Positions 33,605 through 35,559 of a stretch of DNA of 64,000 bases are shown here, one piece after another. The stretch's first letter is position 1; each line of letters begins with the position of its first letter. This stretch comes from an uncultured Clostridia bacterium (GTDB lineage Bacteria; Bacillota; Clostridia; Oscillospirales; CAG-272): positions 1,987 to 65,986 of the forward strand of contig CALWJW010000001.1 of NCBI GenBank assembly GCA_944381095.1, written 5' to 3'. A program made the translations under genes and the position numbers. The notes under the pieces are model-generated. The model had not been told where the DNA came from, searched no databases, and saw only the letters and a program-made list of their open reading frames with translations.

Positions 33605-34045
33605 TTAACGGAGGTTACTGCGACGGCTGTCGAGATAATCCTGAAGTATAATTTCAGCTGAAAGGTTGTCAATGACGGCTTTCCTTTTTTTACCTCTGGT
33701 GTCCGTCATATTGAGAATGCTGTGGGCAGCCATTGTAGTACAGCGTTCATCAAAAAGAACGGTAGGGATATCGCATATCTCGGCAAGCGCATCACGAAGC
33801 AGTTTTATTCTTTCAGAACTTTCTCCGATTGTGCCATTCATATTCACAGGGTTTCCTATTACAATCAGTTTTACGTTTTTTTCCAAAGCCTTTTCCCTGA
33901 TCGCGTTTGCGATCGGGTGGATGCCAGATACCTTGATGGTACACAAAGCGCTTGCGAGAAAACCGTTTTCATCGCTGACAGCCACTCCGGTTCTGACTGT
34001 GCCTACGTCTACGCCGAGGATTCTTCCGACAGGAAGTTTTTCCAT
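33605..34045 (-). CDS. ruvX: Holliday junction resolvase-like RuvX/YqgF
   Basis: 146 aa with RILGVDVGTVRTGVAVSD and DERCTT. The SD is AAGGAG. Confidence 0.9.
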   Translation of the reverse strand: MEKLPVGRILGVDVGTVRTGVAVSDENGFLASALCTIKVSGIHPIANAIREKALEKNVKLIVIGNPVNMNGTIGESSERIKLLRDALAEICDIPTVLFDERCTTMAAHSILNMTDTRGKKRKAVIDNLSAEIILQDYLDSRRSNLR

Positions 34046-34152
34046 AATATATCTCCTTGATTTAAGTAAAAAGTAAATCGGGTTAATGTTATGCAGTCAG
34101 AATGAAAGGACATTTCAGCAAATTTTAATACGTTGTGACATCCGGCTTAGAA

Positions 34153-34333
34153 TTAAGGCACCACCGCGCAATTCACGGCTCGCGCCTTGACCGCACAACT
34201 TTTTGCATCTTTTTCGCCAAACTGCACAAATCTCCTTGTCAATAGATCCACTATTGCCTGCGTCAATTTGGTTTGTTTGACGAAAAATCTGACGGCAGAT
34301 TTGCGCAGTCAGAATTGTGCGGTGTTGCCTTAA
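34153..34333. repeat. ~180-bp element bounded by 22-bp imperfect inverted repeats
   Basis: The left arm TTAAGGCACCACCGCGCAATTC (34153-34174) pairs with the right arm GAATTGTGCGGTGTTGCCTTAA (34312-34333): 20 Watson-Crick pairs, 1 G-T and 1 mismatch. A nested second pair is ACTGCACAAATCT (34221-34233) / AGATTTGCGCAGT (34297-34309). Confidence 0.8.
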
Positions 34334-34623
34334 ATTTTGGCAGAAAAATCATGAGAAAACTGCTGTACCCGAAGTGAAAAGCTGTACAGGAGTAAAACGA
34401 AAAGGACCATCTCAGGTTAATTCTCTTTGCGGATGCTGTCGTAACCGTCACATGTCAGACAGATTATTTTCGTTTTTTGATTTCCGTGTCAGTAAATTAT
34501 GAGACAAAGCGCTATGTTGACCGTTTGTCCGATTATAGTATATTACATTACACTTATTTTCCTACCTGTACTGATCAGCGTGTCAAAAAAAGCCGTGATT
34601 CTTCTAATTCAGAACTGCATTTT

Positions 34624-35559
34624 TCAAAATTTAATATTTCTTTCCGTCAAAAATTTGTTCAGCTCAGCATCAGTCGGAACCGATTCACCCGCACCCGTTC
34701 TGGAAACGGTAACTGCGGCAACAGCATTACCGAATCTGCACGCTTTTTCTATGCTTCCGGAGCGCACATATTCCAAAGTAAGAGCAGCGGTGAACGAATC
34801 GCCTGCGGCAGTTGTATCTTTGACCGGAACGCAGTAAGCCGGGAATAATTCGAGTGACGTTCCGTCTGACACGGCGGCGCCTCTCTTTCCGAGTTTGATC
34901 ACGTAATATTTTGCCGCTACCATTGATTTGAGTTTATTAACAGCCGCAACGCAGTTTTTTTCGGTGTCCGGTGAAATGCCTGTGAAAATCTCGGTTTCCG
35001 TTTCGTTGGGTGAAAATACGCAGACCGGCGAAAGAGCCCGTAGGTTGATATTTTTGTCGGCGGGACCGGCGTCGATAAACATAGGCACGCCTGCCTCGTA
35101 ACATAAGCGGGACAAATGAGTAACAGTTTCAAAAGGTATTTCAAAATGACAAAGAACAGCGTCCGGACAAGCTTTACCGAATGCATCGGCGGCGATTACG
35201 GGAGAAAGTGAAAGATTTGCGCCTGAAAAAACTGTAATCCGGTTAGCTCCGTCGTCCTCAACAGTGACAGTAGCCAGACCTGTCGGTCGATCCGAAGAGA
35301 AGCTTATGTAATCGGTACGCACAGACAGACTCTTGTAGAAATTCAAAAGAGCCTTGCCGTTTGAGTCGTTTCCAAGCGAAGCGCAGAAGTAAGACGATCC
35401 TCCCAGTTTGGCAACAGCTACGGCGGAATTTGCGCCTTTTCCGCCCGGTACATAGCAGTAATCTCTGCCGAAGACAGTCTGACCTTTCACCGGTGCGTCT
35501 TTGACTCTCATGTTCAGATCCATATTTGCCGAACTTACAGTAAGAATTTTGTACTGCAT
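34624..35559 (-). CDS. rbsK: ribokinase (PfkB family)
   Basis: 311 aa with GGKGANSAVAVAKLG and DTTAAGDSFTAAL. Confidence 0.8.
   Translation of the reverse strand: MQYKILTVSSANMDLNMRVKDAPVKGQTVFGRDYCYVPGGKGANSAVAVAKLGGSSYFCASLGNDSNGKALLNFYKSLSVRTDYISFSSDRPTGLATVTVEDDGANRITVFSGANLSLSPVIAADAFGKACPDAVLCHFEIPFETVTHLSRLCYEAGVPMFIDAGPADKNINLRALSPVCVFSPNETETEIFTGISPDTEKNCVAAVNKLKSMVAAKYYVIKLGKRGAAVSDGTSLELFPAYCVPVKDTTAAGDSFTAALTLEYVRSGSIEKACRFGNAVAAVTVSRTGAGESVPTDAELNKFLTERNIKF

Follow-up and report, generated by a model that had tools for sequence, protein, structure and literature searches.

A stretch of 64,000 nucleotides from an uncultured Clostridia bacterium (the window) carries a palindromic element in the spacer between ruvX and a gene for a PfkB-family carbohydrate kinase, two genes that both lie on the minus strand. 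An earlier reading of the letters alone (the sequence-only reading) had described 22-bp inverted repeats at this place and offered three alternatives, namely a phase-variable switch, a relic of a MITE (miniature inverted-repeat transposable element), or a long-hairpin non-coding RNA. Is the element a switch for ruvX, a regulatory RNA or a piece of mobile DNA? We are highly confident that positions 34157-34329 form a 173-bp non-autonomous type II MITE linked to the IS5 family, which was inserted at a TTAA between the kinase gene and ruvX.

An empty site in a strain of the same species

We searched for contigs with the exact RuvX protein of the window, which yielded ten independent assemblies of the same species (L001-L010), and we aligned their spacers. 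In one of them, L001 (GCA_949282145.1), RuvX is 100% identical, the flanks are about 99% identical and the element is precisely absent. The spacer of L001 measures 401 bp against 578 bp in the window, and the element together with a single TTAA accounts for the difference of 177 bp. The window reads ...CTGCCAAAAT-TTAA-[173 bp]-TTAA-TTCTAAGCC..., and L001 reads ...CTGCCAAAAT-TTAA-TTCTAAGCC.... Such a pair of filled and empty sites is the classic sign of cut-and-paste insertion with a 4-bp target duplication.

The comparison also redefines the ends of the element. The arms of the sequence-only reading, TTAAGGCACCACCGCGCAATTC (34153-34174) and GAATTGTGCGGTGTTGCCTTAA (34312-34333), were recovered with the same coordinates and sequences, and they are complementary at 20 of 22 positions across an interval of 137 nt; with up to three mismatches allowed, the 22-mer matches the window at these two places only, against a chance expectation of 0.00 in shuffles. 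Since the filled and empty alleles show a 4-bp duplication, the outermost TTAA of each arm is duplicated target DNA that lies outside the element, and the true ends are 18-mers, complementary at 16 of 18 positions.

Among the remaining assemblies, L002-L005 span the element, and three of these (L003-L005) are collinear with the window. L002 has lost 46 bp of the hairpin apex (approximately 34241-34286 of the window) and thus represents a third allele besides the filled and the empty one. The other five contigs (L006-L010) stop inside the element, at positions equivalent to 34182-34237, and these breaks in five of the ten assemblies are consistent with a repeat, or with filled and empty alleles mixed in the samples. 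Upstream of ruvX in two related species (RuvX identity 81% and 70%), the element is absent and the spacers, of 339 and 163 bp, are unrelated to that of the window.

Dispersed copies in gut Clostridia

The pattern TARGGCAMCACCGCRCAATTC was scanned over a species-representative genome collection, for which we estimated about two matches by chance. The terminal repeat GGCAAYACCGCAYAATTC was found in at least 119 stretches from at least 66 Clostridia assemblies, counted by accession prefix. Among the matches listed, all hosts were Clostridia from gut, rumen or faeces, including Oscillospiraceae, Ruminococcus, Acutalibacter, Gemmiger, Subdoligranulum, Faecalibacterium, Ruthenibacterium, Lawsonibacter, Neglectibacter, Anaerotignum, Christensenella, Anaerovoracaceae and a Lachnospiraceae metagenome-assembled genome, and a single genome held up to nine loci (Candidatus Cibiobacter qucibialis). 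Cultivable carriers include Acutalibacter intestini, Gemmiger formicilis, Ruthenibacterium lactatiformans and Anaerotignum neopropionicum. When the ends in these matches were paired, 75 elements proved to be complete; they measure 42-348 bp, and the modal sizes are 161 bp (14 copies) and 172 bp (17 copies). Identical 4-bp flanks were present on both sides of 61 of the 75, as TTAA (32), TTAG (10), CTAA (10), ATAA (4), ATAG (2), CAAG (2) and TTAT (1). The identity of left and right flanks was not imposed by the search pattern and is therefore unbiased support, as is a scan with an internal pattern.

For this unbiased check, a 32-nt pattern internal to the subfamily of the window was run against a metagenome collection. 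It returned 16 human-gut metagenome contigs, none of them at the window locus, and nine of the 16 carried copies 95-99% identical to the window element in seven different flanks. A metagenome-assembled genome (L128) held a 99% identical copy at an eighth site. Near-identical copies thus lie at eight or more other flanks, in metagenomes and one genome, and no further copy was found within the 64-kb window itself. All seven internal-pattern copies that had intact repeats and could be scored at both ends were flanked by TTAA/TTAA, and one degenerate copy had TTAA/TTCA. Strain polymorphism and copies 97-99% identical imply recent movement: at the population level the element is young, mobile and multi-copy. 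The MITE of the sequence-only reading is supported, and more strongly than its word 'relic' suggests: the element is insertion-polymorphic, and its repeats and target duplication are intact.

The size range of the family is wide, from mini forms of 38-44 bp that consist of an end, a short loop and an end (for instance L037:204-241) to long forms of up to 348 bp, with an apex that acts as an exchangeable module. The blocks TTCCGTCAG and CTGACGAAAAATCT of the core are common to other subfamilies. Copies about 70% identical were seen on the plasmid-filed Subdoligranulum variabile records OY725839.1, OY725879.1, OY725847.1 and OY725857.1, with no annotation under them. The end pattern was also seen in 27 stretches of viral contigs (L171-L197, IMG/VR), with complete 172-bp copies in L179, L193 and L197. 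Its occurrence both on viral contigs and in several orders suggests that phages assist the spread of the family, and it is plausible that they carried it across the Clostridia. A literature search for the end sequence, or for a named Clostridia MITE, retrieved nothing specific, and we provisionally regard the family as undescribed and unannotated in the literature and public records, with ISfinder and Dfam-like catalogues outside the comparison.

The ends resemble those of an IS5-family insertion sequence

We inspected 21 loci with unpaired ends for a neighbouring transposase. In most of these, a truncated or mini element lay next to ordinary genes, and a transposase was seen in L105 only, where a truncated gene for a DUF772 transposase domain adjoins the exact repeat. 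Full-length homologues of this transposase have 320-325 aa and the Pfam domains DUF772 and DDE_Tnp_1. Four 321-aa homologues (P0129, P0158, P0153 and P0146) were studied for the context of an insertion sequence (IS), and P0129 scored 303.8 bits against the NCBIfam model NF033581, 'IS5 family transposase', which has a cut-off of 140. In 22 of the 23 places that encode one of the four proteins, the gene lies in an element of 1135-1138 bp, and the remaining contig ends before the right end. The left end of this IS is GGCAACACCGCACAATTGCC and its right end, read inward, is GGCAA(C/T)ACCGCACAATAGAC; these are also written GGCAACACCGCACAATTG (IRL) and GGCAA(C/T)ACCGCACAATAG, and the end motif that would mark a matching IS5-family IS is GGCAACACCGCACAATT.

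The consensus end of the MITE family, GGCAACACCGCACAATTC, is identical to IRL at 17 of 18 positions (the first 17 bases), and the end at 34157-34174 in the window, GGCACCACCGCGCAATTC, which resembles this left end, differs from IRL at three of 18. Compared by eye, the interiors of the IS and the MITE are unrelated. In the sense of PMC10969869, which we follow here, a type II MITE has only its ends in common with an autonomous element, and the window element fits this class by its end match and the unrelated interior of the IS. Copies of the IS (L130, L160, L164 and L166) were also seen adjoining phage-type genes, with DUF2800/PDDEXK_1, Enc34 single-stranded-DNA-binding and ANT domains.

We propose that an IS5-family DDE transposase, encoded elsewhere in the genome or on a phage, would bind the two 18-bp ends, excise or copy the element and integrate it by a staggered 4-bp cut that duplicates TTAA. 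The source of the enzyme may be the approximately 1.14-kb IS with near-identical ends, acting in trans. We infer that the element is moved by the IS5-family transposase identified here or by a close relative.

Taken together, a precise insertion polymorphism, a 4-bp duplication, dispersed near-identical copies and ends held in common with an IS5-family element carry the assignment. MITEs are recognised by their small size, by terminal repeats with target duplications, by being mobilised in trans and by transcripts that form stem-loops (PMC10969869). The window element is small and non-coding, has terminal inverted repeats and a target duplication with an empty site, occurs in dispersed copies in unrelated contexts, and shares its ends with an autonomous IS of dissimilar interior that encodes a DDE transposase of the IS5 family. 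The target duplications of E. coli IS5 are of 4 bp and lie at YTAR (PMC5009759), and TTAA, CTAA and TTAG are forms of YTAR, so that these flanks fit the IS5 target motif.

Several observations weigh against this assignment. The genome-collection pattern required TAR beside one end, so the enrichment of NTAR/YTAR flanks is partly built in; the 4-bp YTAR duplications of the MITE copies have to be read with this bias in their counts, and the internal-pattern set gave TTAA. Clean 4-bp duplications were obtained for two IS copies on long contigs, the flanks of copies on short metagenomic contigs being unreliable, and these duplications, TTTC and TTGT, are not YTAR, so that the IS identified may be a cousin of the real mobiliser. 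No transposase gene was found by tblastn within the 64-kb window, the rest of the genome being unread. Finally, the strand-specific conservation of the hairpin described below is not explained by a plain MITE of which only the ends matter.

Anatomy and folding of the element

The features of the locus are collected in Table 1. The spacer measures 578 bp, and the distance from the element to the ruvX ATG, previously given as about 105 nt, is 108 nt. Two open reading frames of 61-62 aa overlap the element and run out of it, and neither has a Pfam match. The inner arms, the two apical hairpins and the additional copy of the arm core noted by the sequence-only reading are all present. The repeat core C(C/T)GC(G/A)CAA lies inside the element at 34191 and 34222 and, inverted, at 34299 and 34315; together with 34163 on the plus strand, the core of the terminal repeat thus recurs in both orientations, which explains the 'competing arm' CCGCACAA at 34191-34198. 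These internal copies may serve as additional sites for transposase binding, or they may be left over from the construction of the palindrome.

Table 1. Coordinates of the MITE, its parts and the two flanking genes in the window
Feature	Position	Strand	Remark
ruvX (Holliday-junction resolvase-like, PF03652)	33605-34045	-	element starts 108 nt upstream of its ATG
Target-site duplication, copy 1, TTAA	34153-34156	.	empty allele of L001 has a single TTAA
MITE body, 173 bp, non-coding, imperfect palindrome from end to end	34157-34329	.	presence/absence between strains; dispersed copies
Terminal inverted repeat GGCACCACCGCGCAATTC	34157-34174	+	resembles left end (IRL) of the partner IS
Internal palindromic core	34175-34311	.	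inner arms, apical hairpins, repeat-core copies
Inner arms	34221-34233 / 34297-34309		complementary at 12 of 13 positions
Two small apical hairpins	34240-34256 and 34261-34282		within the core
Terminal inverted repeat, outward-in on the minus strand GGCAACACCGCACAATTC	34312-34329	-	identical to the family consensus end
Target-site duplication, copy 2, TTAA	34330-34333	.	same TTAA/TTAA around near-identical copies elsewhere
PfkB-family carbohydrate kinase gene, upstream neighbour	34624-35559	-	'rbsK' in the sequence-only reading

On both strands, a stretch of 206 nt forms a single long and irregular hairpin, at -82.4 kcal/mol on the minus strand (z -6.3) and -73.2 kcal/mol on the plus strand (z -5.9), and none of 200 shuffles folded as well. 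The long hairpin is a property of the MITE family and not a device that evolved at the ruvX locus.

Switch, RNA or single-strand transposon

We then weighed the MITE against the other readings of the same palindrome. If a recombinase encoded in trans flipped the 137-bp segment between the 22-bp repeats, the element would be an inverton that alters ruvX expression; the inverted repeats are real, and the sequence-only reading had drawn on the likeness in size and repeat length to the C. difficile flagellar and cwpV switches. However, these repeats belong, as its ends, to a transposon family that is dispersed and makes target duplications. A consensus scan of 34157-34329 gave no promoter-like site inside the element, in agreement with the sequence-only reading, which had found no convincing promoter there. 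The orientation is identical in all ten carrying assemblies of the locus (five spanning and five partial), where no inverted allele was seen, assemblies being a weak proxy for reads in this respect. The strain variation consists of presence or absence and an apex deletion, with no inversion, and relatives lack the element at this locus. A phase-variable switch is accordingly very improbable, and this part of the sequence-only reading fell.

A structured RNA particular to this locus, either a small RNA (sRNA) formed by the long hairpin or a 5' leader evolved to regulate ruvX, would account for the very stable fold (z about -6) and for the fact that the more stable strand is the ruvX coding strand. 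Such an RNA would have to be reconciled with the absence of the element from a sister strain and from two related species at the locus, with near-identical copies in unrelated contexts, and with a hairpin that begins exactly at the transposon ends. Rfam gave no support either: at the gathering score, Rfam 15 identified only two tRNAs elsewhere in the whole window, the spacer searched at E up to 10 had only two chance eukaryotic matches, and 15 copy-bearing loci together with one 161-bp copy had no match at the gathering score. We consider it highly unlikely that the hairpin arose as a ruvX regulator. At the level of the family, which keeps its hairpin in a strand-specific way, the single-stranded hairpin may have a role, to which we return below.

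The relic of a single-strand transposon, that is, a palindrome-associated element of the IS200/IS605 type or a repetitive extragenic palindrome (REP) moved by a REP-associated tyrosine transposase (RAYT), would naturally account for a hairpin that is conserved on one strand. IS200/IS605 and REP-type elements insert beside a fixed short target, make no duplication and have no terminal inverted repeats. By contrast, the 4-bp flanks of the present family vary between copies and are identical on both sides of each (TTAA, CTAA, TTAG, ATAA, CAAG), clear 18-bp inverted ends are present, and these ends match a DDE element of the IS5 family. This origin therefore has next to no probability in our judgement.

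Strand-specific conservation of the hairpin

A further proposal extends the MITE assignment and is compatible with it: selection would act on one strand of the full-length hairpin, either in RNA or in single-stranded DNA, and the formation of the hairpin would be necessary for the element to spread or would confer a role at the level of the host. We regard this as possible, though rather less than an even prospect. The candidate roles comprise an element for RNase III or stability, a protein-binding hairpin that carries the conserved CTGAC loop, and a single-stranded intermediate of transposition or replication.

In 59 of 61 copies, the strand 5'-GGCAATACCGCATAATTC...GAATTGTGCGGTGTTGCC-3' folds better than its complement, by a mean of 22.7 kcal/mol. 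An energy-free self-alignment showed 404 A·C versus 99 G·T mismatches on the weak strand. The same asymmetry was found in the 161-bp subfamily (alignment A2, 13 copies from 13 assemblies), where, of 786 cells, 96.8% are paired on the favoured strand against 83.5% on its complement, and where the cells comprise 652 Watson-Crick pairs, 109 G·U and only four A·C. Double changes occur in 15 of 61 pairs, and the covariation score is 0.192 versus 0.102 in shuffles, none of 500 of which reached it, and at most 0.07 when the partners were slid. At the apex, the stem swaps AAGGC/GCCTT, CATAC/GTATG, CTTGC/GCAAG and CAACC/GGTTG surround a conserved CTGAC loop. One-sided changes within subfamilies led from Watson-Crick to G·U in 34 cases and to A·C in 11.

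A mutational strand bias was considered as the cause of the G·U asymmetry, and the spectrum of private substitutions does not support it: the counts were 60 versus 81 in paired columns and 30 versus 24 in unpaired ones. This lack of an overall strand bias argues against a purely mutational cause.

Other points speak against selection on the hairpin. The copies share ancestry, so that the counts overstate the number of independent events, and the structure tested was itself derived from their consensus. Paired changes that mimic compensation can also arise without selection, through template-switch 'correction' of quasi-palindromes. The orientation of the stable strand relative to flanking genes showed no robust bias, with 7 sense and 18 antisense by one gene heuristic and 10/16 (p=0.33) by another. 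In the window copy itself the asymmetry is modest (-79.0 versus -67.6 kcal/mol), and stable hairpin transcripts are a generic trait of MITEs (PMC10969869). That selection has kept the full-length hairpin and its CTGAC loop on one strand across subfamilies, gut Clostridia orders and phages, with a functional single-stranded form, seems to us doubtful at present, and we treat the strand-specific conservation as a lead and not as a finding. If true, the single-stranded form, either RNA or DNA in replication or transposition, could be required for IS5-type mobilisation of palindromic MITEs, or the element could be a mobile RNA or protein-binding module.

Neighbourhood of the insertion and ruvX

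Having assigned the element to a MITE family, we considered what the insertion might mean for ruvX. The consensus scan of 34157-34329 identified neither a sigma-70-like nor a terminator-like site, and a search by eye for an outward promoter from the element toward ruvX was unconvincing. A borderline promoter-like site on the plus strand, 34125-34153, is formed by the flank and TTAA, and points away from ruvX. The rest of the spacer, 34334-34460 on the minus strand, was evaluated as a structured leader and is unstructured (z +1.1). Because there is no convincing promoter or terminator in the element and the upstream spacer is unstructured, we infer that ruvX is more or less unaffected by the insertion. 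Were ruvX transcribed from upstream, its leader would gain from the element a hairpin of about -79 kcal/mol.

Some further features were seen in this spacer and in its counterpart in a relative. A weak terminator-like hairpin, CTGTAC...GTACAG followed by a T-run, lies on the minus strand at 34393-34359, 24 nt upstream of the insertion point. Further upstream on the same strand is a sigma-70-like site, CTGACA-18-AATAAT (34463-34492), and a short transcript, about 110 nt long and situated between ruvX and the kinase gene, could be bounded by the two. In the relative with 81% RuvX identity, the spacer upstream of ruvX (L169:374-714) contains three or four tandem repeats of about 21 nt, TCTGTGATT(T/C)A(T/C)CAAAATT, which have the look of repeated binding sites and do not occur in the window.

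Significance and comparison with known systems

The element shows all the testable defining features of an IS5-linked bacterial type II MITE, and it is ordinary mobile DNA and not a gene switch. General knowledge of MITEs is unchanged by the present family. Its use lies in annotation. Hundreds of intergenic hairpins in Oscillospiraceae, Ruminococcaceae, Acutalibacteraceae, Anaerotignum and further Clostridia of gut and rumen would be picked out by the combination of GGCAAYACCGCAYAATTC ends, a 4-bp YTAR duplication and a size of 161 or 172 bp; without this signature, they could be mistaken for phase-variation switches or sRNAs. The element can also serve as a presence/absence marker of strains, and it causes contig breaks. 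The strand-specific hairpin offers a testable lead on how palindromic MITEs are maintained.

IS5-family-associated type II MITEs have been described in Neisseria meningitidis, where ATR has ends of ISNme1, and in Porphyromonas gingivalis, where MITEPgRS, MITE239, MITE700 and BrickBuilt have ends of ISPg1/3/4/9 (PMC4596501). Like these, the present elements are short, non-coding, dispersed, mostly intergenic and variable in size, and their similarity to the IS5 family is confined to the terminal repeat. They differ in having their own end, GGCAACACCGCACAATTC, in their gut and rumen Clostridia hosts from several orders, in their presence on viral contigs, and in a palindrome that spans the whole length with strand-specific G·U conservation. 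The likeness to E. coli IS5 (InsH) lies in the DUF772 and DDE_Tnp_1 transposase of the partner, the 4-bp duplication, the YTAR target including TTAA (PMC5009759) and ends that start with GG. In contrast to IS5, the window element has no transposase, the partner IS is 1.14 kb long with a 321-aa transposase and different repeats, and its two reliably flanked copies duplicated TTTC and TTGT and not YTAR.

Correia/NEMIS, ERIC, RUP and Coxiella QMITE2 are bacterial MITEs whose transcripts fold to long hairpins (PMC10969869, PMC2229807). The present family resembles them in its length of 100-200 bp, terminal repeats, target duplication, intergenic position and a stem-loop formed by the whole element; co-transcription with neighbouring genes is possible for elements of this type. 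Its sequence and its parent IS are unrelated to theirs, and Correia and RUP duplicate TA. Finally, the C. difficile flgB and cwpV switches, like the window element, span 150-200 bp, have imperfect inverted repeats of some 20 bp at their borders and lie upstream of a gene. Those switches are single-locus, contain a promoter or terminator, occur in both orientations and have no target duplication, whereas the window element is multi-copy, present or absent between strains, found in one orientation and flanked by a TTAA duplication.

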